A stretch of 61,428 nucleotides of DNA from NCBI GenBank assembly GCA_045837725.1, contig JBEWZL010000207.1, forward strand, positions 1-61,428, given 5' to 3'. The DNA is from Vermamoeba vermiformis. Lineage: Eukaryota. The translations under genes and the position numbers were made by a program. Numbering within the stretch: the stretch's first letter is position 1; every line of letters starts with the position of its first letter. Positions 5,391 through 50,803 of this stretch are shown here, piece by piece. The notes beneath the pieces were generated by a model. It was not told the origin of the DNA, ran no database searches, and saw only the letters and a program-made list of their open reading frames with translations.

Positions 5391-5852
5391 TTCGTGACCA
5401 GCACAGTCACGAAGTTTTGGACTATAATATTTTTTTTCATTGTCCGGAGACGATCTTGCAGGAGTGAATTTTATTTGTTCGTGACCGGTGTGGTCACGAA
5501 GTTTTGGACTTTGGAATTTTTTCTTACATCGTCTCCCGCTGGAGACGACCCTGCAGGACTTTGGTTTTTTTTTACATCGTCTCCCGCTGGAGACGACCTT
5601 GTAGGACTTCGTTTTTTTTTACATCGTCTCCCGCTGGAGACGACCTTGCAGGACTTCAATTTTTTTTTAAGCTCGTGCCCAGTGTAGCCACGAAGCTACA
5701 ACTTAATTTTTGTTACATCGTCTCCCAATGGAGACGACCTATCAGGACATCAGTTTTCTGAGTTCATGTCCGAGTGGTCAGGAAGTTTTTGCATTATAAT
5801 TTTTTCAGTTCACAACTTAGTTTAAGTCGTCTCCTGTTGGACCTGAAAGACT
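5391..5852. repeat. Array of ~10 palindromic hairpin units with ~47 bp period (types A and B), each followed by a GGACT-like motif and a T-rich tract
   Basis: Type A TTCGTGACC-loop-GGTCACGAA at 5391 and 5478, degenerate near 5671 and 5762. Type B TCGTCTCC-loop-GGAGACGA in units starting 5526, 5574, 5621 and 5715, degenerate near 5438 and 5826. Confidence 0.9.
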
Positions 5853-5944: not shown

Positions 5945-6120
5945 TTACTCATTAGTGCTCAGCAACTCTCATTAGCACTCGGCAGCTCTTGTCAGTGCTC
6001 AGCCACTCTTGTTAGCGCTGGCGACTCTCGTTAGTGCTGGCGACTCTCGTTAGTGCTCGGCGACTCTCGTTAGTGCTCGGCGACTCTCATTAGTGCTTGG
6101 CAACTCTGGATAGTGCTCAT
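5945..6120. repeat. Tandem repeat, ~20-bp unit GTTAGTGCTCGGCGACTCTC, ~8 copies
   Basis: Directly visible; variants differ mostly by CG>CA/TG changes and 1-nt deletions. Confidence 0.9.
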
Positions 6121-6433
6121 TAGCAGTTAGCATCTCATGCAAGTTCTTCAGGTCCTTGGCTGAAAACTTCAGAAGTTTTTCTTGGTCATATGTTACTTTT
6201 GGATAGTTTTTAGGGCTAGCCCTGTTTGGCCAAGCCCTGTAGTATATATGAATAGGCTTCGGCAGGCGCAATGTCATATTGCCCTTGGGAGAGGACTTCT
6301 TGGGACCTTGGTTCGTAGCGCCTTGGCCCTTGGGGCTAACGTTGGTGTTGTTGCCTGCGCCCTTGGCCAGGGGTGCTGACTTGGGGCTGGGAGTCCCGGC
6401 TGCAGCTAGTTGATCGAGCTCGTTGGCTGACAT
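6050..6433 (-). CDS. Hypothetical low-complexity (P/K/S/G-rich) ORF embedded in the repeat block; possibly a decayed TE gene
   Basis: ATG at 6433 (MSANELDQLAAAGTPSPKSAP...). The C-terminus runs into the 20-bp array. A diverged copy of the IHIYYRAWPNRAS-coding segment lies at 7526-7566. Confidence 0.3.
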   Translation of the reverse strand: MSANELDQLAAAGTPSPKSAPLAKGAGNNTNVSPKGQGATNQGPKKSSPKGNMTLRLPKPIHIYYRAWPNRASPKNYPKVTYDQEKLLKFSAKDLKNLHEMLTANEHYPELPSTNESRRALTRVAEH

Positions 6434-6533
6434 TTGACGGTGGGTGTTGAAGTTTCGGTTGTTGTTGTTACTGTTACAAAGCAAGAGTTAGCAATGAGCA
6501 TTTTACACCTTGAAGCTAACATCCCGATTGACT

Positions 6534-6731
6534 GCGGATCGGGGTGGACCCAGACCCTTCCTGATTCGCCGCAGATCGGGGTGGACCCAGGCCCTTCCTG
6601 ATTCGCCGCGGATCGGGGTGGACCCAGGCCCTTCCTGATTCGCCGCGGATCAGGGTGGACCCAGACCCTTCCTGATTCGCCGCGGATCGGGGTGGACCCA
6701 GACCCTTCCTGATTCGCCGCGGATCGGGGTG
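6534..6731. repeat. Tandem repeat, 37-bp GC-rich unit GCGGATCGGGGTGGACCCAGACCCTTCCTGATTCGCC, 5 full copies plus a partial
   Basis: Units start at 6534, 6571, 6608, 6645, 6682 and 6719; a degenerate copy lies near 6987-7010. Confidence 0.95.
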
Positions 6732-7230
6732 AAAATGAAATTTCGCCCAAATATGGCAAGGTAAGCCACGTGCACTGCGACTTGTTGTGCTCTGTGTTAT
6801 GAAGTAATTAAAAATGACTAAGATTCGGTTTCTCGATTCTCTCAAAATTGCCTCCCTGCCTCCCTTTTGAAGGAGGCTTTTTATTTTTCGCCTCGCCTGG
6901 ATTCGAACCTGCGCCTTCAAGGTTTTACAGGAGTTTGGCACTATTTCCCGATTCAGAGTCTGCCAGGAGCCCAGTTGGCCTGGTATCCTGATTCGCGACG
7001 GATCGGGATCGGGATTTTTCTTCCTGATTGGCGCCCAATTGGGATGTTTTCAAATTTTGACCAAAGCCAATAACTTTTTTCTGTGTTTTTCATGAAATTT
7101 ACGGGCTTTTTATTTTTACATCGTTTTTGCTGGAAAATACAAGTTTTTAAATATTGCCCTTTTTCGACAAAAACACCTATTCCTATATCCCTAACTCCTA
7201 GGAAACAGTAATATGTCAGTATTAAATAGA

Positions 7231-7314
7231 TCGTCTCCGTGGTGGAGACGACCTCCTAGGACTTTGTTTTTTTTTTAATAGATCATCTCCATGACCACCC
7301 TTACATGGAGACGA
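7231..7314. repeat. Two further type-B hairpin units, same orientation as the 5391-5852 array
   Basis: TCGTCTCC-GTGGT-GGAGACGA..GGACT plus T tract at 7231; TCATCTCCATG-ACCACCCTTA-CATGGAGACGA at 7283. Confidence 0.85.
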
Positions 7315-7624
7315 CCCTCGCAAACTTTATTGTAGTGGATTGTACTGATTAGTTTATTGTAGTAGCCAACTCATAGCAACCCTGCAACCTGCCAAACCAG
7401 TCAAAGCACCCTCAAACCTGCCTTGTTACACCTGCCCTGCCTGGAATTGTTTGTCAAGCCAATTTTGTAAATAAACAAAGTTTTCATTAGTTTTTGCAGT
7501 TTTTCATAGGAATTTTATATTTGTCAGGCTAGCCCTATATGGCCAGGCCCTACAGTATATATGAATATTATAAACATTAGGCTTGTGATAATTATAGTAT
7601 AAATAAATATTCAAACGTTAATTA

Positions 7625-9642
7625 AGGGCGCAGTCAACTTGCCGTTTTCGCGGTTCAAAAAAAAAATTGAAAGACTAAAATTTCTATGGAATTTCTTCAT
7701 TTTATTTGTTTTATTCCACATCACACTCGTTAGCGTTATTTTGAATATTATTCGTGCAAGAAACACAACGGCAGCGTGGAGAGCATCCACGACCAGCCTT
7801 GAAGCAAGAACAGCGGTGATTTTTACACCCTGTTTTACAGCCGCACTTCTCGGCTGTTTTGTATTTGTATTTTTTGTTTTTGTTTGGATTGTGGTTTCGC
7901 TCGAGCTTTTGCTTTCGCAAAGCGACTTTCTTTTGGCGTACACTGGCCTTTTTTTTATGCTCTGCCACATGTTGCTGGGATTTGTCAGCAGATTCTAGGC
8001 AGCGATTAAAATATGGAGAAGATTCGAAGCCACAATGCTCGAAAATGTCTCTGATCCACCGATTTTTCAGCTGGCTATTTAATAATCCAATATCAGCACG
8101 GGCAGCATAACTGCGTAGGTAATCTTTTCGTTTTTCGACGGATGCAGCAATGCAGTTATTGATACTCTCTAGGTGATTGGTATTGAAGGCGTGTATGTAA
8201 CTCGCACTACGAGATGCTGTTACTCGAATAATTTCTTCAAGTTCGGCAATTGCCATGAGAGAAGTAAGTCTTCCTAAGCAAATCTGGTCAGATTTAAATT
8301 CGTTTCTCCACCACTAACCTTTCAAATAAGGCATTGTATGCCAACACTTATCGTGTATACCACGGCAGTGATCTACAAATTGTCGGATGCTTGCTTCAAG
8401 CTCTTCAATTATTGTTGCTTCCATTTGTTTGCCGATCTTGTCCCGTGCTGCATTTGCCGCTGTGTAGAGCCATTTCTTCCCTCTCGTAGCAATATTCTTT
8501 GCCTCTGGATATCGTTCCTCGAGATTGCGTAAGTGAATGACAAGATTCTTTGCAGCATGGCTCAGGCACTGAAATTCTTTCGCATTAGGAAAGTGTTCGC
8601 GGATGAGCTTTGACATTGAAGCGTCGTTATCGTGAACGTAAGAACCAATAACGAAATGCTCTTCTTTCATCATAGCAAATACCTGCTCTGCTCCCCATCC
8701 CTCCATAGAACGAGCTGAACCGCTGTACTGCTGGAATGGTGTAGCTGAATTCCGCTTCCGCTGGACATGCACTCGCCACAAGATCTTATTAGACTCGAGA
8801 TCAGTTATTGTAACAGTGCATTGCTCGGAATTGAAGCCTCGCGGATTTGTCCACCTGCCATCAATTGCCACATCTAAGGCGACGGATCCTGCACCAACTC
8901 GCTTTAGATGGGTTTGTCTCTGCCTCACCTCTGCACGATGAGAAGCCCAGAGTTTGGAGGCATAGTCTTCAATCTTCATAAGATACTGCCGTTGCTTCCT
9001 ATAGAACTGTTGTTTACTTGGTGGTGTCAGATCCAAAAAAGTGAAGAACCATGAGGTTTGTTGGTAACTCAAACGACTTGCAAGGGTTGCCAAGATGAAT
9101 TTTTCATTAATTGAGGCAGTTCTACCACATATTTCAGCAGAATCAAACAAGATCTGACGCTGGCACGTAACGCACTTCCAAGAAAATCGAGCAACACAAC
9201 CAAAGTCAGAAATATTGTAAGAAGTGAGAAGTCCACCACAGGTGCAACGCAAATGTTCGCAAATAAAGTCAACCAGCTTGTTTTTAACCAAGATCGTGCA
9301 GCTTGAAGTAGCGGATGTAGGGTCTTTCATTCTCGGTTGCTCACAGGAGTTGAGCAGTGAATTAATTGGTAATTTTGAGGGACTTTGGAGTTGCTGTAGT
9401 GGATGCTCAGCATTAAATTTAAGCATCCACTTTTGACAGCGTAGCTGATGTCGTTTGAGAGCATAATTATTGCTAAAAACCTTTGGAGAGCAAATACAAG
9501 TTTGTTGCATCGTTTACTGTGATGTTTGAATAAAGACGCGACACAAATCCGCGAAAAAAGGTGTGAAACAGCACGTGAATAGCAGAAATTTCTAACCACT
9601 CACACAACGGCAGTTAGAAAATTCGCACATGCACTGCGCCCT
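7625..9642 (-). mobile_element. ~2.0-kb DNA transposon (Kolobok/Mutator-like) with 10-bp TIRs
   Basis: AGGGCGCAGT at 7625-7634 and its reverse complement ACTGCGCCCT at 9633-9642, each flanked by TTA (7622-7624, 9643-9645). The TIRs tightly enclose the transposase gene. Confidence 0.75.
7711..9510 (-). CDS. DDE transposase, Kolobok/Mutator-like, ~584 aa, 2 exons
   Basis: Exons 9510-8319 and 8273-7711; 45-nt intron GTTAGT..CTGAC..TTAG. Motifs VAIDGRW..PRGFNS (D), SARSMEG, YVHDNDAS (D), CLSHAAKN (CxxH), HCRGIHDKCWH, NTNHLESINN (E). N-terminal C2HC zinc finger; C-terminal CGCKTGCKNHRCSCFKAGRGCSPRCRCVSCTN (tesmin/TSO1-like CXC). Confidence 0.88.
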
Positions 9643-9688
9643 TTATTGAAATAACAATAAGAATGATGATGAAATCTCATCGATCGAA

Positions 9689-10445
9689 TTACCCCCATAA
9701 GGGTAATTCTTCATACAATCTGAACGTAGTGTACTGAGGATAGCAATCAAAGAGACGATAAGGACCAAAGCAGTGACCTTTGCAAACAGCTTCATTAGGA
9801 CGAAGAATGCCAAGTTTGCGAAGGAGTTCAGTACGATAGATGCACCAGTTACGCTCCATGTTAATGTAGTGAATCTCCCAAATGAGGTGAAGTGGATTAT
9901 AACAGTCCTTGTTATGGCAAAGATGAGAGAGATCAACACTAGAACGGAGCCAATACTTAAAGACGACAAAGAAACCAAGATCGTCTTTCTTGTACAACCA
10001 TTCTTTCTGTTCAATTACTTTAGCAACGTGAGACAATCTAAGGTACTTAGTCTTCTTCTTGTTCTTGATCTCGTGCTTGTTAAAATCAACAACACGACTA
10101 ACAGAGATGTAGCCATTGTCATTCTTTGAAGCAGATCTAACTTCAATGACATTGCAATTACCAGCTTTACGTGCATCAGTGTCATCTAATTCAAACGAAA
10201 TCTCATTCAGTAAAAATCCCCTATAAGAGAAAAACAAGAAACATACTCTGATCTCTAAGAACTCTGCGATTGAGCTTGCGGCGATAGACTTGCTGAAGAG
10301 AAGTAAACTTGAAGAAATGCGGCAGATCTGTCGACGGTCTGTCCTTCTCTTTGTCATAGATATCAGGACCAAGACTTGCAGGGTCAATCTCTCCCAATAA
10401 TTGGAGATAATTAGATAAAGTTACTCTAGTGTATTGAGTAGTCAT
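9689..10445 (-). CDS. His-Cys box (His-Me finger) homing-endonuclease-like protein, ~231 aa, 2 exons
   Basis: Exon 10445-10247 joins exon 10185-9689 in frame across a 61-nt intron (GTATGT..TTAG). Contains SHLCHNKDCYNPLHLIWEIHYINMERNWC, an upstream C..NGY motif and downstream C..H..C residues. Confidence 0.88.
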
Positions 10446-10505
10446 TTGATTTTGTGTTGAATCATTTGACTTAAATCAAATAAAATTGCAGCGAGAAATT
10501 TGGTG

Positions 10506-10535
10506 GGATAACTTAGCCGATCAGTTAAGTTATCC
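10506..10535. other. Inverted repeat/hairpin with a perfect 10-bp stem, 60 bp upstream of the endonuclease ATG
   Basis: GGATAACTTA-GCCGATCAGT-TAAGTTATCC. Confidence 0.8.
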
Positions 10536-10585
10536 TTCTTATAGTATTGCTAAACCAAAGATTTATTAATTAACAATATTGGAAA

Positions 10586-12462
10586 CTAATTACAAAATTT
10601 AGGCATGTTAAACAAACTTTTGGAAAGGACCTTTTTCAAACTCTCTACAATGTGAAGCATTGGCTCATGATTTTTATCTGTTGATTGGAGCCACTCGTGA
10701 TTTAATGCTTCTTTAAGAGAAATTCGATCTGAAGACTGATTCGCTAATAATTTGGATATAAAGTCACGTGCTAATGGTGTCACAGCTTCAGGATCTGAAA
10801 ATTCGAACGGTTTACTCAGGCGTCGAGTTGCATTTACCATGATTCCAAAATCAAATTGTAAATGCTTGACGTGAATTAAATCGTGGATAAATGGAAGACG
10901 ACCAGTCATTAACATGTGTGCTATCCAACCTAATTAAATAACATTTTTAAAATTAATCAGCTCATAAATTAACAGAGTATAACAGATCATCTCTGATACT
11001 TACCAACCACAAACGAATAAGTCTTTTCAGTGCATTTATCACCGTTGAACATTTCAAGCGAGGGTATGAAAGACTTTGCAGAGTCAGCATTCAGTTCCGA
11101 AAAATGAAACAAGGCCGACAATAATTTAATCTCAATCTGGTAAGAAAAAAGAATTATTAACGCACAGTTAAGTTTATACGATTATTAGATCGTTATTAAT
11201 ATTATGCATATTGAAATAATTTAAAACGTACTTTATCATTCGGCAGCAGATTTGCAGCCAGTAATCCGTAATTGAACTGGTACGAAAATATTTGATGGTC
11301 ACAAAGCCATTCAGCGAGCAACAATATTTGTCTCGTTATATCTTGCACCTATATTAATAGATGAAACGTTAAATAAGCGGAATTCCAAAACGTGAAACGA
11401 TCTGACATCAAACTTACGTTGGCTTCAGTGATGAGGTCAGGCCGTTTTAATAGTATTTCGGATAAGAATCCATCTGTTATTTCGCTAAATAATAACATAC
11501 GATGGGACTGTCTGGTGTAGAAGAGATTTTGTACGGCCAGATTCGGATGTCGTTGATCTTTGAATTGAAGTTCGAAGTCGATCAAAAGGTGTTCAATGTC
11601 CTCTGGTTTGATGTGCACCTTAAAAGTAAATAAATGTTGTCCTATAGCAACAGGTGGGCTCCCAGGAATATTCTAAAAAGGAAAAATTAATTTCGGAATC
11701 GCTATGCGGGTAAAACTTGCCAAAAAGAATATAATTCAATCGATATCTCGTTACATCAAATTAAAGAACGCGATATGCTATTATTGCTGTTGTTGACTTA
11801 CGGCCAGTTGGATTCGCTGGATCGAACTTTGGTCGGAAAGCGTTTTGATTTGTTTTTCGAAGCGGGAAATATTCTTTTCGTCAATAAAACAAGCAGTTAA
11901 ACGTGACAAGAATAACGAGAAATAATCTAGGAGAAATATTCGAGCGTTATTAAATTTTAACGATTTAAAGCCAAGTGCCACTTACCTGTATCTTCTTTGA
12001 AATATATCGACGAGATATAATACTGCTTGCACATAAACCTCCAAAAATCATTACTCTTAAAGACACCGTTCCAGTACTTGCTGAGCAGTTGAAGCCTGAA
12101 TTTTCTATTTAGCAAATTCTTCTTTCGGTTTTATCAAATCGAGTCTTCGTAAAAATAATATAACAGCAATTTAATTAAATGATGCTTAAAAATACCTTAT
12201 AATGACCAATGGAGGTAGCGCAGCGTATTTTAAAATCTCGAATAATATTTCTTGTGGTAGTCGCGCGAGCCACTCTTCTTCCCAATGAAAAAGCCTATAA
12301 TTGCTAATCGTTATATTATTTTAAACGGAATATCCAAATTTTATCGTTTAGCGAAACAGATTCACGTAAAGACTTGTTTTCTTACCCGTCGTTCACGGAT
12401 TCGTTTTCCTGGTTACTGAATTTCTTTTTGTTGGTACGTAGACCGTTAGTAGTGTTTCCCAT
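10586..12462 (-). CDS. Multi-exon protein with an F-box-like motif and a degenerate (pseudo)kinase domain
   Basis: LARLPQEILFEILKYA near the N-terminus; kinase-fold segments HPNL, MLMTGRLPF, ARDFISKLL..DRISLKEALNHEWL; HRD and DFG motifs not recognisable. Confidence 0.65.
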
Positions 12463-12906
12463 ATTAAATATTAAGAATTGATTGAATTGAGGTGCTCCGT
12501 CGTTCTGCTAATTGATTAAATTTTGTCGGCACATTAAAATCTCATTATAACAAACAAATAGAAATAGAAACGTCGTTTATATAAACGGATTACTGTTGGC
12601 TGCAGAAAATGTATGATATGACGGCAGTTTCATTACATTAGCGACGTACGAGTTGTCATCATTTGGTGACCTTCCTACAATAAATATACACGCTTTATTT
12701 ATTACATAATAGACGGACTCTCCGAGAAGATAGCGAGGAATAATCGTTCCGTACTTCATGCACGACTTTCTCAATTAGCGATTGCTGAATAGCACGTATT
12801 ACGTAATAAGATGGCATTGGAAAATCTCGCGTGATCGCGCCAACCAACGCGAATGAGAAATATGGTTGTTAAATCAAGAGTAATTTATTTATGGTGAATA
12901 TCGATC

Positions 12907-24430: not shown

Positions 24431-25794
24431 TTAGTCGTCTTGTGCACCAGCGTCACTGTGCGCGTCATTAGCACCGTCAATGAGCTCATTATCTTCATCC
24501 TCTCCTTTTTCTATTAAATAAATCATTAATATAAAAGCGCGCATTAACTCAGTGAATAATACATACCTTGCTCGATAACCATCTGATCTGCACCAGTAGC
24601 TGCTTCGGAGTCTTCTAGCCGCTCAGTCGAGGCATTGACATCAACTTCCTGCTCGGCTTCTGCGACGTATTGTGCTTCAGGGTTTATAATGTCAAACTTG
24701 AGAATTGGTTCTTCGTCTGTTGGTGCCCACCACGACACCATGCCCATGCCTGACTCGTACGTGGAGGCCTGTCAATATGTTAATCGATGACACTGGGACC
24801 ATGATAACGACAGATAGACGTACAGTAATGATGATTGGTGACACGAGGGCGTTGTCTGCGGTCGCGCCAGACACGTGTTCACCGGTCGCTGTATTATCAC
24901 CTGCGGCAGCGGCTGCGTTGGCTGTTGTAGTAGCAGCAGTAGGTGCTGAGCTCGGTGCGAGGGACTGGTTGTTAGTGGGATTGAGCATCAACGACTTGAC
25001 TGAAGGCGGGTTGAACTGGACACTTTCAACTCGACACCTGCACTCACTCGTTAGCACGAGCTCATTATTCTATCGTATTTTTATGTGCGCACCTGATGAG
25101 TTTTTTGGCCTCCATAACTAACTCGTGCTCGCCATATTGCCAAACCCATTTGCCGTCGTCACTAAAAGATTGTTGGCACGTGTTGGACGAGATAAAGATA
25201 TTTTATACGTACAAGGCAGAAGGATCGGGTAAAAATGAAGCGGGGATGTAAATGTGCTCGAAGAATTTGATGGAAACTAGCGTCGTTAGTATTTCTGGTA
25301 TTATTCTCGAAACTGATCGGATCTTCAACGCCTTACCTCGAATGTAGTCTTGAGTGCATTCTTTAATTTCTCCTACTAATATTTCGCCCAAAAAAGGCTT
25401 AAACACGATCATTCTGAACTTAACTCTCGTGTGGCTGCAAAACAAAAATCAGCAATTAATTCAAAAACTAAATTGCCAAAAAATGCAATAAATTGCTTAC
25501 ATATACTATAATTATTATGGGGTGATTTTATTAATTTTTTTAACGTACCTTCCACCGTCTCCTGCCATAATAATGCCATCTCCGACATCCACAATATCGT
25601 ACAGCTTTATACATAATCCAATGTTTTCTAGTACCTACACAATAATTAATATTCTCATCGGTGAGTTGATTTGACAGCCATACTCTGTTAGAATATTTTT
25701 TGTTGATCTGGAACTGGATCGCCTCCAACTCCTTCGCGTCGAACTCGCTGGGAGGAATTCGCACGGTATCTTCAATGAGGGCGAGTAAAAACAT
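24431..25794 (-). CDS. RPC8: RNA polymerase III subunit RPC8 (C25)
   Basis: MFLLALIEDTVRIPP..INKKYSNRV; FRMIVFKPFLGEILVG.I; FFEHIYIP; RCRVESVQF; GMGMVSWW; acidic tail and an Ala/Thr-rich insertion. Confidence 0.9.
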
Positions 25795-37845: not shown

Positions 37846-38631
37846 ATGGCTGATCACGTTAAAAAAGAAGTATTTGTCGAGGGCGGATCGTTCTACGATA
37901 ACGTCAAGGCTCAAGTCGAGGCCGTTGTTGAAGGAGAACCAGATTTCATTGCGAATGTCTCAAATATCTCGGCAATTTTATTCGAGCAGCTAAATAAGAA
38001 GAAAAATAACTCTATTAACTGGGCCGGCTTCTACTTTTGGAAAAAAGATCAATTGGTGCTCGGACCTTTCCAAGGTATTTTCGAATCTTCTACTGCCCCG
38101 CTCCGTCTGAAAGTTGAACACCCATCTTTAATTTTACTTTTTATTATTATTAGTATTATACAGAAATTTAAATTAATTATGGCTAAATTTGCTCAGGCAA
38201 AGTCGCGTGCATCCGGATCCCACTAGGCAAGGGAGTTTGCGGCACGTCAGCGCAAAAAAGAGAAACTATTGTACGTTAAATTATTTACATATGTGCTGTA
38301 CTAATATAATTAGTTGGTGCCTGATGTTCATTTGTTCCCTGGACACATTGCTTGCGATTCTGCATCCAACTCCGAAATTGTCGTGCCTATTTTGAGCTCA
38401 AACAAGGTAATTATAGTATTAATATCATAGCATAATAACATGACTGTTAGGAGCAATTGATTGGTGTATTAGACATTGACTGCTTGGTGACAAATGGATT
38501 TGACGAAGAAGACAAAAAGGTACGGCCGTACAACAACCTATTACAAATTAGTAATTATAACAAATTCATTAATCAAGGGCTTGGAAGAGATTGCGGCTGT
38601 TGTAACCCGAGTACACGAGCATCAAGAATAA
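37846..38631 (+). CDS. msrC: GAF-domain free methionine-(R)-sulfoxide reductase
   Basis: [58 protein letters not shown]. Confidence 0.92.
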
Positions 38632-48787: not shown

Positions 48788-50803
48788 TTACATTACAATA
48801 CAGCAACCGACAGATGGTCCACCTTCTCCTTTGAGCGGTGTCGTTTCTAAAAATGAAAGTTAGAGAACCTAGATTACAATCAGTAAATACAAGTAGTCAC
48901 AAACCTCTTGCTCGAGCTTTAGAAGGAGACTTTGAATCAACCAGAATAACATGCTCTTGCGCACCGGCACTTTGTCCGCTACTCATATTTGTCGCAGGAA
49001 CAGGTTTGTTCTCGGGTTCTGGCACGGGCTCGGGCTTGACCTCAGGAGGAGGGACCACTTCAGGCGCTGTTGGTGCAGGACTAATGCGTACAAAAACATT
49101 AGGGTCTAGGTCCTCCGGTCGTTGGCTAGCAGGAGACTGCGGGTTAGAGCGTGGAACAGCCGACTCCCATGCGGACTTGTTGACATTGCTGTTACTCGTG
49201 TTATTCGCTGCGTGATCGCCATTGCCGTTGGTCGCTGACTGCTCGGGACTGGCTTCCGTGTTTTGCTGTTGAGACTCGTTTGGCTCTTCTGCCTTCTTTG
49301 TTTTCGTTATTAATTTTAACTGTGACTTGACAGTTTTGAAAGACATCTGTACTATTGTTAATTAACCGTCACTTATTATGCATCATACATTGTTCTTACC
49401 TTGGCACTAGCACAATTTTTGACCCAAATGTGGTCCATAAGCTCCTCGGCTGAGGCACGTTTTGTCGGATCTTTAACGAAGCATCGTTGCAAAAAGTCGA
49501 CAAGATCTGACGGTAAGTGTTCAGGCAATGGAGGCATATCATCCTAATATACTTAGTACTAGGCTCTTACAATAAATATCGCTACGTACTTTGACCATCA
49601 AGAATATTGCGTGCATTTGATCGTGTTCCCAATATGGCGGATGACCCGTTAATAATTCAATCACTGTACAACCCAAACTCCTATTTAAAACATCTATTAG
49701 CATATAATACTATAATGTGTCATCATTGGTATATGCAAAACAATTTGCCACAATAATTACCAGATGTCAGATGCGCTCGTTGTTCCTGCAGCTTGAACGA
49801 CTTCAGGGGCCACTATATTAATAAATCGTTAATATTCATGCGTATAACTACTCTCGCACAAGCAAAACATACTCCAATAAGGCGTGCCAACAATCGAGTA
49901 CCGTTTTTCAGTTTCGTCTTTCAACTTGGCTGCGGCACCAAAATCGGCCAATTTGACTTCTCCTTCTTTGGTAATCAACAAATTTGCAGCTTTAATATCA
50001 CGATGAACAATTCCTTTCTTGTGCAAGTAGTCTAAACCTTGCAGCACTTGCGCGACGAACTCTCCAACCAAAAGCGGTGGAAAAGACGTATATTGCTTCA
50101 TTAAATTCAATAACGATCCACTATCTACATATCTAATAAAAAATATTATATATAAGCCTTATAATTAGTTTTTGAACGTACTCTAAAATCAAATAAATAT
50201 TGGCTTTGTCTTCAACAAATCCTTTAACGGCCACAATATTCGGATGCTGTAATCCCGATAATAAATCTAACTCGGTCTAAATATAGAACACTGTTAATAT
50301 TAAATTCGACTATGTAAATTCAAACGTACCGTTACAGCTTTCAATTGATCTGCTGACATTTCACCTTTGCGAAATTTTTTAATTGCAATTAATTCGCGTG
50401 TATCGATATTCAAGCCTTTATGAACAGTTGCTGCGCCTCCTTTGCCAATTACATCACCAATTACCTAACGTTTAAAAACGATTCAATAATATTGCAACAA
50501 AATATTCAATAGAAGAATTTAAACTGCTGAATACTGCAGCATATATAATATTAATAACGTTTTTATGCTTAATTAGGGACTTACGTATTTTTTGCCTAAT
50601 TTTTTGTATTTTTTCTTTTTGGGTTCGCCGTATTCTGCGCCAACTTTGATGGAACTGTTGGGCGATAGTATTTTAGGAGATCCTCCATCACTAGACACTT
50701 CGCCATTATTATCTTGCTCGTTGTCTGAGCCTTCTAGCTGAGGATCTGAAATTTCTAGCAGCGATCCGTCGGTTATTGTTGAACTTGTTGTACTTTCACT
50801 CAT
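48788..50803 (-). CDS. STE-group Ser/Thr kinase (Cdc7/Cdc15/SepA-like catalytic domain) with C-terminal CaaX
   Basis: [38 protein letters not shown]-type, [18 protein letters not shown]; last exon ends GCCIVM-stop. Confidence 0.88.

Follow-up and report, generated by a model that had tools for sequence, protein, structure and literature searches.

Contig JBEWZL010000207.1 of Vermamoeba vermiformis (assembly GCA_045837725.1) carries, head to tail on the minus strand, a gene for a DDE transposase (ATG at 9510) and a gene for a His-Cys box nuclease (stop at 9689-9691), an arrangement confirmed by reading. The locus raises the question of whether both genes move as one element, where such an element ends and to which superfamily it belongs. 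The original prediction had described a composite element with a Mutator-type 9-bp duplication. The window analysed is the whole stretch of 61,428 nt, positions 1 to 61,428 of the contig on the forward strand.

Presence and absence of the block

Both genes lie in one TTAA-flanked presence/absence block, missing from other haplotypes of the same organism, since both states are found among the Logan contigs of DNA run X1, from this organism. A contig of 2,906 nt spans 7615-10520 with 0 differences at a depth of 265.9 and carries both genes; a joint from 7621 to 10471, present in two contigs with a summed depth of 1,099, omits 2,849 nt, and four letters (TTAA) fit either side of it. The empty-site alleles that the original prediction had recommended looking for were thus found; X1 may be the sample from which the window was assembled. 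The whole block has 2,845 bp (7626-10470) with TTAA on each side, and the insertion site reads TTAATTAA. The flank bins showed depths of about 1,200-1,500 (1,377 in bin 10340-10556); the block-bearing share of the DNA at the locus was about one fifth, and the remainder was the clean empty site. The block was present at the depth of a single haplotype and no second copy of the transposase or nuclease gene was detected in the window by tblastn, so that co-mobility is seen at most once. The features at the borders are the following:

7622-7625, no strand: left TTAA target-site duplication of the whole block (4-letter overlap at the empty-site joint)
10471-10474, no strand: right TTAA target-site duplication of the whole block (empty-site joint)
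10464-10481, no strand: unexplained 18-bp pseudo-palindrome over the right junction, ATTTGAC-TTAA-ATCAAAT (6 of 7 arm positions pair)
10506-10535, no strand: hairpin between the kinase stop and the block (RNA fold -12.1 kcal/mol, z -3.8, 0 of 200 shuffles folding as well)

Of the 456 TTAA sites in the window, only 4 have arms that pair as well as those of the pseudo-palindrome. At its outer right end (...TTTGAC) the block has AC at 10469-10470, that is R-Y and not the Y-Y of 5'-RR..YY-3' termini. Inverted or direct repeats above the level of shuffles were absent from this end and from the ends of the nuclease cassette; the same shuffle test gave p 0.15 for the genuine 9-nt inverted repeat of the transposon, which is convincing solely by its position at the termini.

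The 9-mer pair TTATAGTAT, proposed as the borders, does exist at 7592-7600 and 10539-10547, but the empty-site joint places both copies in flanking DNA. The hairpin was likewise correctly described, with a 10-bp stem and 3 nt from the right 9-mer, but it belongs to the flank and not to the element. The host gene noted just to the right of the pair was recovered as the C-terminus of a protein kinase, ending at 10586. The CpG retention said to distinguish both genes from the adjacent repeats turned out to be a weak contrast, with observed/expected ratios of 0.93 in the transposon, 0.72 in the nuclease cassette, 0.82 in the repeats at 6000-7300 and 1.14 in the whole window; CpG is low only in the 322 bp at 7300-7621 (0.29).

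Characterization of the transposon

The canonical element has 2,016 bp (7626-9641), inverted repeats of 9-12 bp and one gene for a 584-aa DDE transposase. Its left end reads TTAA followed by GGGCGCAGT from 7626 and its right end ACTGCGCCC up to 9641 followed by TTTA, with GG at 7626-7627 and CC at 9640-9641; the inverted repeat AATTAAGGGCGCAGT / ACTGCGCCCTTTATT is located at 7620-7634 / 9633-9647. Its features are:

7626-7637, plus strand: left terminal inverted repeat GGGCGCAGTCAA, 5'-GG terminus (repeat search, reading)
7711-8273, minus strand: transposase exon 2, stop at 7711-7713, with the last catalytic-E motif NTNHLESINN and a C-terminal Cys-rich domain of CXC/tesmin type (reading, PF03638)
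8274-8318, minus strand: predicted 45-nt spliceosomal intron, GTTAGT..TTAG, phase 1 (restores the frame)
8319-9510, minus strand: transposase exon 1, ATG at 9510, with N-terminal zinc-binding motifs and the DDE core with its CxxH motif, CLSH (PF20700, reading)
9630-9641, minus strand: right (inner) terminal inverted repeat GGGCGCAGTGCA, CC-3' terminus on the plus strand (repeat search)
9642-9645, no strand: inner junction TTTA, one letter off TTAA (reading)
10566-10569, no strand: TTAA next to a second element of the same family in another haplotype, which ends in ...TTGACTGCGCCC (X1 contig with a loose end of 255 letters just before 10566)

TTAA duplications and 5'-RR..YY-3' termini define the Kolobok superfamily (Kojima and Bao 2022, Mob DNA, PMC9587614, cited throughout from part of its text). 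Judged from its sequence, the transposon is an autonomous DNA transposon of this superfamily, targeting TTAA and predicted to be active. Instead of the 9-bp duplication of Mutator type that had been proposed, the duplicated letters are the TTAA at 7622-7625 and 10471-10474, and the GG..CC termini fit Kolobok. Membership of the Mutator/MULE superfamily was rejected, with 18.3 bits against PF10551 (cut-off 27.6), 11.9 against PF00872 (Transposase_mut; cut-off 21) and a 4-letter overlap rather than one of 8-10 bp. The caveat of the original prediction that the short inverted repeats enclose the transposase only still stands, and the outer right end bears no such repeat.

The transposase matched PF20700 with an E-value of 7.2e-31 (107.9 bits, cut-off 26.5) and, with its C-terminus, PF03638 (2.9e-5). 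PF20700, for which no literature naming it was found, also matches the transposases of two metagenome loci, L007 (6e-59) and L009 (7e-61), that resemble the KolobokP lineage of animals. With KolobokP-like transposases as tblastn queries, 8080-8241 was matched at E 0.012-0.02; direct BLASTP and hhalign comparisons (probability 0.2%) were not significant, and the core of the MAFFT alignment with these proteins was unreliable. A word-based protein search with exon 1 revealed no paralogue (one cluster, its own, among 1,984 candidates of near length, and 0 of 149 at shorter lengths), and no relatives were found in public viral contigs (5 pattern matches).

The second element listed above ends in the same 12 nt as the left repeat at 7626-7637, followed by TTAA, and an X3 contig breaks at 10566 too. 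A 253-bp indel was also seen at 7274-7526, and the intergenic stretch takes many insertions.

Characterization of the nuclease gene

The nuclease gene occupies the rest of the block:

9646-10470, minus strand: nuclease cassette, 825 bp, outside the inverted repeats and inside the presence/absence block (joint, 2,906-nt contig)
9689-10185, minus strand: nuclease exon 2, stop at 9689-9691, with an I-PpoI-type His-Cys box / His-Me finger domain (PF05551)
10186-10246, minus strand: predicted 61-nt intron, GTATGT..TTAG, of an uncertain model (gene model)
10247-10445, minus strand: predicted nuclease exon 1, ATG at 10445, 25 nt inside the right border of the block (gene model, no Pfam match)

The identification of the product as a His-Cys box nuclease was corroborated by a match to PF05551 (6.2e-11, 43.1 bits, cut-off 27) and by an alignment to I-PpoI (1evw, 1cz0, 1a73; 1.5e-7) in which the active-site residues are kept (S97, H98, C100, C105, H110, E114, N119 and C125). 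Candidates for the second zinc site (C..H.C) were recognized by reading, and 15 columns are invariant across 10 relatives. An AlphaFold model of exon 2 had a mean pLDDT of 56.2, with residues 1-74 below 50; the I-PpoI chains ranked 1-4 when this pLDDT-56 model was compared with the PDB by Foldseek (E 0.07-0.72), which is only suggestive. The gene is intact and its product is probably active. Both genes had been described as intact with a single intron each: they are intact, but the introns are predictions, and for the nuclease, a model with a 22-nt intron and one with an intronless ORF that starts at an internal Met are alternatives. The gene seems to have no promoter of its own, because its ATG is preceded by only 25 nt of the block. 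Downstream of its stop, the TTTA at 9642-9645 together with 9646-9647 reads AATAAA on the minus strand. RNA run X6 had 0 reads over 6000-12500 and is no test of expression or splicing, because the kinase gene in that interval has no reads either.

The only nuclease paralogue in the protein collection was P0002, 84-85% identical, apparently frameshifted and with no detectable transposase partner. No relatives were found in public viral contigs with an alignment query (35 pattern matches) or in public genome contigs (31 pattern matches), and none of the 10 longest of 84 HMMER matches to the nuclease contained a fused transposase domain. The half-site motif TTAANTSAAAT, defined post hoc, occurred 3 times where 1.07 occurrences were expected, a count reached in 9 of 100 shuffles, and 34 times against 24.9 when one mismatch was allowed; neither excess is convincing.

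In 5 of 13 metagenome loci that encode nuclease relatives, a PF20700-type transposase lies beside the nuclease, L010, L011 and L013 being counted on the basis of tblastn likeness to L007/L009. The layout is convergent and KolobokP-like in L007, L009, L011 and L013; in L010 only the first 79 residues of the transposase are present, 1.1 kb upstream of the nuclease ORF and divergent. The relative in L002 is free-standing between host genes, and no transposase occurs within 10 kb of the relatives in L003 and L008. A quick tree with weak support placed the nuclease among free-standing relatives, apart from the KolobokP nucleases.

Comparison with known systems

Among known systems, KolobokP of animals comes closest; the cited part of PMC9587614 reports it from 7 animal phyla only. 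The original prediction had correctly named it as an animal Kolobok with a His-Me nuclease. Both systems have a Kolobok-type DDE transposase (with the same PF20700 in the KolobokP-like L007/L009), a separate ORF for an I-PpoI-like His-Me / His-Cys box nuclease, a TTAA target, and internal copies of short inverted repeats in a composite-like layout. However, KolobokP is bounded by long direct repeats of about 450 or 660 bp that each contain inverted repeats of their own, and the present locus lacks these terminal repeats: no direct repeat longer than 26 nt was found among the 20 largest of 59 families in 7000-11200. The CCHC zinc finger of KolobokP between the first and second catalytic D is also missing from the locus transposase; by reading, a single Cys lies between AIDGRW and HDND, where L007 has C..C.NH..C. 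The KolobokP nuclease is encoded downstream on the complementary strand, in the internal region, whereas that of the locus is encoded upstream on the same strand, outside the inverted repeats. Finally, the locus is about 2.8 kb and single copy, and KolobokP is larger than 4 kb, multicopy and multimeric.

Plain Kolobok elements (superfamily of Kapitonov and Jurka, summarised in PMC9587614), with hosts that include Naegleria, diatoms and trichomonads, share with the locus the TTAA duplication, short inverted repeats with 5'-RR..YY-3' termini and one DDE transposase gene, whose C/DxxH motif is read at the locus as CLSH. In contrast to them, the block runs 829 bp past the right inverted repeat and includes the nuclease gene, and the transposase has a C-terminal domain of CXC/tesmin type (PF03638), of which no mention was found in the cited part of PMC9587614.

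With I-PpoI and the His-Cys box enzymes of rDNA group I introns, the nuclease shares PF05551, the motif SHLCHN..C.NPLHL.WE....N..RNWC, the catalytic His and Asn, and the zinc ligands. The cleavage site of I-PpoI has TTAA at its centre (PMC9587614), and the same four letters border the block on each side and form the middle of the pseudo-palindrome at its right junction. Unlike those enzymes, the nuclease is encoded by a free-standing gene between the kinase gene and the transposon, with no rDNA nearby and apparently not in a group I intron, and has a predicted spliceosomal intron, a 66-aa N-terminal extension and some 20 additional residues ahead of the second zinc site.

The analogy with TnpB/Fanzor (OMEGA) drawn in the original prediction concerns an accessory nuclease gene travelling with a DDE transposon, but target recognition here would be by protein and not by RNA, and the His-Me finger and RuvC folds are unrelated. 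The original prediction saw a possible role of the nuclease in cutting empty or excised sites so that the element is copied back; a review of 2026 (PMC13565253, cited from part of its text) argues that restorative homing of this kind is nearly out of reach for nucleases guided by protein, except where the insertion target is fixed.

Origin of the block

The composite proposed originally holds insofar as both genes belong to one presence/absence block, but its borders and superfamily were wrong. The best explanation, to which we give about an even chance, is that the block entered the site as a unit, the nuclease gene having been captured or transduced, with co-mobility plausible. The Kolobok transposase would have used the canonical left end together with a non-canonical one lying to the right of the nuclease gene, and such end pairing would have captured or transduced that gene; the result would be an independent, perhaps nascent, parallel to animal KolobokP. 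Mobilisation of the block in one step is the most likely reading. KolobokP excision usually removes 1-5 flanking bp (PMC9587614), and therefore the clean TTAA of the other haplotypes fits a site that was never occupied. Kolobok lineages repeatedly carry accessory nucleases, according to the same source, and the five metagenome loci with a PF20700-type transposase next to the nuclease gene are a further precedent for such a pairing. Against entry as a unit stand the complete canonical element at 7626-9641, which leaves the nuclease out, the paralogue P0002 without a transposase partner and the outer right end without an inverted repeat. The apparent lack of a promoter for the nuclease gene, the single-haplotype depth, the grouping in the quick tree, the non-significant BLASTP and hhalign comparisons with KolobokP-like transposases and the possible identity of X1 with the assembled sample also count against it.

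That the nuclease helps the transposon is doubtful; otherwise it may be a selfish passenger making staggered, TTAA-centred cuts as I-PpoI does. A more specific version is unlikely: a Kolobok outside the animal KolobokP lineage would have taken up a His-Cys box nuclease independently, and this nuclease would recognise the pseudo-palindrome at 10464-10481, which would exist only at the right junction of the element itself. Cleavage would be shared, with the canonical left end cut by the transposase and the right end, which lacks a repeat, by the nuclease; the pair would leave, or be copied between the several haplotypes of this genome, as one unit. If true, the nuclease would help its transposon as TnpB/Fanzor help theirs, but with target recognition by protein.

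Two separate TTAA-duplicating insertions at the same TTAATTAA site, of the nuclease cassette as a small mobile homing-endonuclease gene and of the Kolobok in one copy of the cassette's TTAA, or in reverse order, are rather improbable; adjacency would then be accidental or target-driven. The stretch is insertion-prone (the 253-bp indel and, in another haplotype, the same-family element at 10566), only the transposase lies within the canonical inverted repeats, P0002 has no detectable transposase paralogue beside it, and among the relatives that of L002 is free-standing and those of L003 and L008 have no transposase within 10 kb. Moreover, I-PpoI leaves 4-nt TTAA 3' overhangs (PMC9587614), and ligation of a cassette cut likewise would restore TTAA on both sides. 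Nevertheless, the cassette has neither inverted repeats nor other recognisable ends, no mechanism is known for its TTAA-duplicating insertion, and, with 7.4 TTAA sites per kb, two independent events would hardly abut exactly. No contig with the cassette only or the transposon only was seen, a weak argument since only one haplotype carries either part.

It is less probable still that the nuclease gene is older resident DNA at whose edge the Kolobok inserted, both having been lost from other haplotypes in one deletion or aberrant excision from the left end of the transposon to the next usable TTAA. The left border of the missing block is exactly that end, the 4-nt overlap could be microhomology, and the unusual pseudo-palindrome could mark a repair product. 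However, the identical clean joint is shared by two different contigs with about four fifths of the depth, so that the empty state is commoner and probably older; KolobokP excisions usually damage the flank (PMC9587614), and the inner junction is TTTA and not TTAA.

A joint that is not allelic, but a paralogous repeat copy or an artefact of contig building, would leave the borders not established and is very unlikely. The left flank matches other contigs for only about 57 nt (7565-7621) before diverging, the left region is repetitive, its depth rising to 4,375, the joint has 42 letters on its shorter side and Logan contigs are short; yet the depths add up (266 + 1,099, close to the 1,377 of bin 10340-10556), and the joint coincides exactly with the end of the transposon and has TTAA on either side, which a random paralogous join would not predict.

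Finally, a Mutator-type composite bounded by the 9-bp repeat and the terminal hairpin is extremely improbable: the 9-mers and the hairpin exist and the family name of PF20700 is 'Mutator-like', but both 9-mers lie outside the empty-site joint, the left one by 21 nt and the right one by 68 nt, and, as the original prediction had itself allowed, the match could be chance: among 20,000 random pairs of 100-nt stretches separated by 2.95 kb, 4.2% have a direct 9-mer in common. The window contains this word 5 times, where 0.45 occurrences would be expected, and the contexts are unrelated.

Significance

To our knowledge, no eukaryotic transposon lineage other than KolobokP has been described with a protein-guided nuclease of homing-endonuclease type. 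KolobokP is still presented as the example of such a transposon in the 2026 review, with the role of its nuclease awaiting experimental confirmation (PMC13565253). If the two genes were merely neighbours, the result would be an ordinary one, an intact low-copy Kolobok beside a selfish nuclease gene. The locus lends itself to testing through its small size, its two intact genes and the fact that both its occupied and its empty allele are known. If the block did enter as a unit, it would be a second association between a transposon and a homing nuclease, with a different architecture, and Kolobok transposons, which insert at TTAA, and I-PpoI-type nucleases, which cut around TTAA, would have been paired more than once.

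Genes of the Block

Two intact genes lie head to tail on the minus strand, as the original prediction had described. Their features are as follows:

ATG at 9510 to stop at 7711-7713, minus strand: transposase gene, 584 aa, two exons, intron predicted
9510-8319, minus strand: transposase exon 1, matching PF20700
8318-8274, minus strand: predicted transposase intron, 45 nt, GT..AG, the removal of which restores the frame
8273 to stop at 7711-7713, minus strand: transposase exon 2, its C-terminal end a CXC/tesmin-type Cys-rich domain
ATG at 10445 to stop at 9689-9691, minus strand: nuclease gene, second exon matching PF05551

The PF05551 match of the nuclease was 6.2e-11 (Pfam). Compared with all PDB sequences, the only matches of the nuclease at E < 0.1 were to I-PpoI chains (best 1.5e-7), and these chains made up five of the eight sequences listed up to E 1. 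The alignment with I-PpoI showed that the motif SHLCHN..C.NPLHL.WE....N..RNWC is kept entire (H98, C100, C105, H110, E114, N119 and C125); since the active-site residues are kept, the nuclease is probably active. It is a member of the His-Cys box family that is not intron-encoded, and by analogy with I-PpoI its cleavage around a TTAA would be staggered. The nuclease intron is a prediction only (61 nt, 22 nt, or none), and the structure model was poor except for the active-site core. No more than 25 nt of the block lie upstream of the nuclease ATG, a point against the nuclease being part of the transposon.

Occupied and Empty Forms of the Locus

Contigs of public runs were compared with positions 6000-12500 of the window, including those of X1, a DNA run labelled with the organism of the window and perhaps made from the very sample that gave the window. 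An RNA run matched with no reads anywhere on this 6.5 kb, the neighbouring kinase gene included. The occupied form was represented by a 2,906-nt contig of X1, which matched 7615-10520 with 0 differences at a depth of 265.9. Two other X1 contigs, with a summed depth of 1,099, represented the empty form and join 7621 to 10471, skipping 2,849 nt. Four letters at this joint fit either side, namely the TTAA found both at 7622-7625 and at 10471-10474. Both genes are therefore within one TTAA-flanked block, 7626-10470. The depth of the flank bin 10340-10556 was 1,377, near the sum of the occupied and empty forms; judged from the X1 depths, roughly one fifth of the DNA at the locus has the block, and the rest is a clean empty site.

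The 9-bp direct repeat and the hairpin that had been proposed as borders of a composite element, as well as the short inverted repeats, were present where described. However, the TTATAGTAT copies and the hairpin are outside the block, in DNA common to the empty form, and are not its borders. A 9-mer is shared by chance in 4.2% of comparable window pairs. An argument from retained CpGs proved weak, as the window averages a CpG o/e of 1.14 and the block reaches only 0.72-0.93.

The word TTATAGTAT is over-represented, occurring five times in the window (7592-7600, 10539-10547, 25503-25511, 38411-38419 and 49707-49715) against 0.45 expected from shuffles, in unrelated contexts.

Assignment to the Kolobok Superfamily

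The left end of the element reads TTAA followed by GGGCGCAGT... from 7626, and its inner, right end reads ...ACTGCGCCC up to 9641, followed by TTTA. Kojima and Bao (PMC9587614) recognise Kolobok by a 4-bp duplication specific to TTAA and by termini of the form 5'-RR..YY-3', and they include Naegleria, diatoms and trichomonads among its hosts. Exon 1 of the transposase matched PF20700, 'Mutator-like transposase', at 7.2e-31, and the transposases of two loci like KolobokP, an animal Kolobok lineage with a His-Me nuclease, score about 1e-59 with the same model. The motifs AIDGRW, HDND, CLSH (CxxH) and NTNHLESINN, read in the translation, are those expected. Neither direct BLASTP nor shallow profile comparison gave a significant match with the KolobokP-like transposases, so what ties the transposase to Kolobok is the Pfam model together with the termini and the target. 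Assignment to Mutator was rejected, given that the classical MULE and Transposase_mut models of Pfam were below their cut-offs on the transposase and that the target is TTAA with GG..CC termini. The element is placed in Kolobok instead.

Mobility of the Family and Neighbouring Indels

From 10566 on, one X1 contig follows the window; its preceding 255 letters are different and end in ...TTGACTGCGCCC, immediately ahead of the TTAA. The last 12 of these are the terminal letters of 7626-7637, and the subterminal sequence differs. A second member of the family is therefore present in another haplotype at the TTAA 10566-10569, 95 bp from the block, and is probably a non-autonomous relative. A contig of X3, an aquifer metagenome, also breaks at 10566. 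Pieces of the transposase gene of 151 and 235 nt, with 0 differences, are carried by X3 and by X4, a drinking-water metagenome, respectively.

Left of the block, the 253-bp stretch 7274-7526 is skipped in other X1 contigs and constitutes a second haplotype-specific indel, with joints from 7273 to 7527 (depth 524, two contigs), 7253 to 7527 and 7274 to 7527. Tandem arrays with units of 48/95, 20 and 37 nt are located at 5446-5757, 5948-6118, 6534-6731 and 7220-7275; X1 joints at 7272-7275 go back by 46-49 nt, and contig depth at the arrays, up to 4,375, indicates high-copy repeats of variable copy number. Over 6000-12500, X1 contigs identical to the window had depths of about 176-492, and diverged alternatives, with several differences per 100 nt, summed to about 1,000-1,100. 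Such a pattern points to a sample with several diverged haplotypes or a mixture of strains.

Possible Association of the Nuclease with the Transposon

In favour of an association, the block is present or absent as a single TTAA-flanked unit, with a canonical transposon end as its left border, and accessory nucleases are described in PMC9587614 as carried repeatedly by Kolobok lineages. Among 13 metagenome loci encoding nuclease relatives, five (L007, L009, L010, L011 and L013, on metagenome or WGS contigs) have a PF20700-type transposase beside the relative, confirmed by Pfam in L007 and L009 and judged from tblastn likeness to these two in the others. The nuclease ORF and the transposase are convergent in L007, L009, L011 and L013, which is the published KolobokP layout; L010 holds only the first 79 residues of the transposase, divergent from the nuclease ORF. 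The contigs of L011 and L013 each have the same sequence at both ends (127 and 111 nt; periods 3,892 and 3,854), a pattern that tandem or circular copies would give.

Against it, the canonical element 7626-9641 is complete without the nuclease, and the outer right end of the block has no inverted repeat and terminal letters wrong for Kolobok. No other copy of the block was found within the window, and the block is at single-haplotype depth. In L002, the nuclease relative is flanked by ordinary host genes. The only nuclease paralogue among 5.8 billion proteins was P0002, 84-85% identical over the domain; this collection yielded no transposase paralogue among proteins of near or shorter length. 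P0002 (163 aa, from a 35,305-nt contig) stops 18 residues early and, over its N-terminal 60 residues, looks like a translation of the window's nuclease gene in the other frame; it is likely to be a decaying copy. A quick tree of 75 domain sequences, based on a short alignment and with many open forks, placed the nuclease with P0002 and P0005, another relative, in a 22-row clade (support 90) that held none of the sampled KolobokP-like loci and stood apart from KolobokP nucleases.

Origin of the Block

Judging from its family membership and the two insertions seen, the transposase would cut out DNA with GGGCGCAGTCAA-type ends and paste it into TTAA. That the block moved as one unit has about an even chance of being correct; the transposase would then have used the canonical left end together with a non-canonical one lying past the nuclease gene, and the inner TTTA would be a remnant of an older flank. 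Two separate TTAA-duplicating insertions are a less probable, still credible, explanation.

The inner junction (9642-9647) has TTTA, not TTAA, giving AATAAA on the minus strand 43 nt after the nuclease stop; a one-letter change from TTAA to TTTA possibly created this candidate polyadenylation signal.

That the other haplotypes lost both parts, through a deletion or an aberrant excision, is unlikely. The identical clean joint occurs in two different X1 contigs, which hold most of the depth, and KolobokP excisions are reported (PMC9587614) to take away 1-5 flanking bp; it is thus more likely that the empty state came first and that the block, as a whole or in its two parts, was inserted into the window's haplotype. 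A non-allelic 7621/10471 joint is quite improbable and keeps some weight because the left flank agrees with the other contigs for just about 57 nt before they diverge and the joint is marked 'between: not known'.

The right junction (10464-10481) reads ATTTGAC-TTAA-ATCAAAT, an 18-bp pseudo-palindrome with six of seven arm positions paired; of the 456 TTAA sites in the window, just four have this degree of symmetry. It fits I-PpoI-like staggered cutting around TTAA and may represent either a site of the nuclease or a scar left by repair. A broader half-site motif failed to hold up in window counts. Restorative homing, the role suggested in the original prediction, is according to a 2026 review (PMC13565253) close to impossible for an enzyme guided by protein, except where its target is fixed.

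Of the known systems, KolobokP comes closest. It has long terminal direct repeats and a CCHC zinc finger after the first D, whereas the locus lacks the repeats and its transposase, as read, lacks the finger; the genes also differ in order, in strand and in where they stand with respect to the inverted repeats. Because these three defining features of KolobokP fail, the transposon is filed as Kolobok but not as KolobokP. If the association with the nuclease is real, the locus would be a variant of the known Kolobok-nuclease pairing, with an architecture unlike that of KolobokP.
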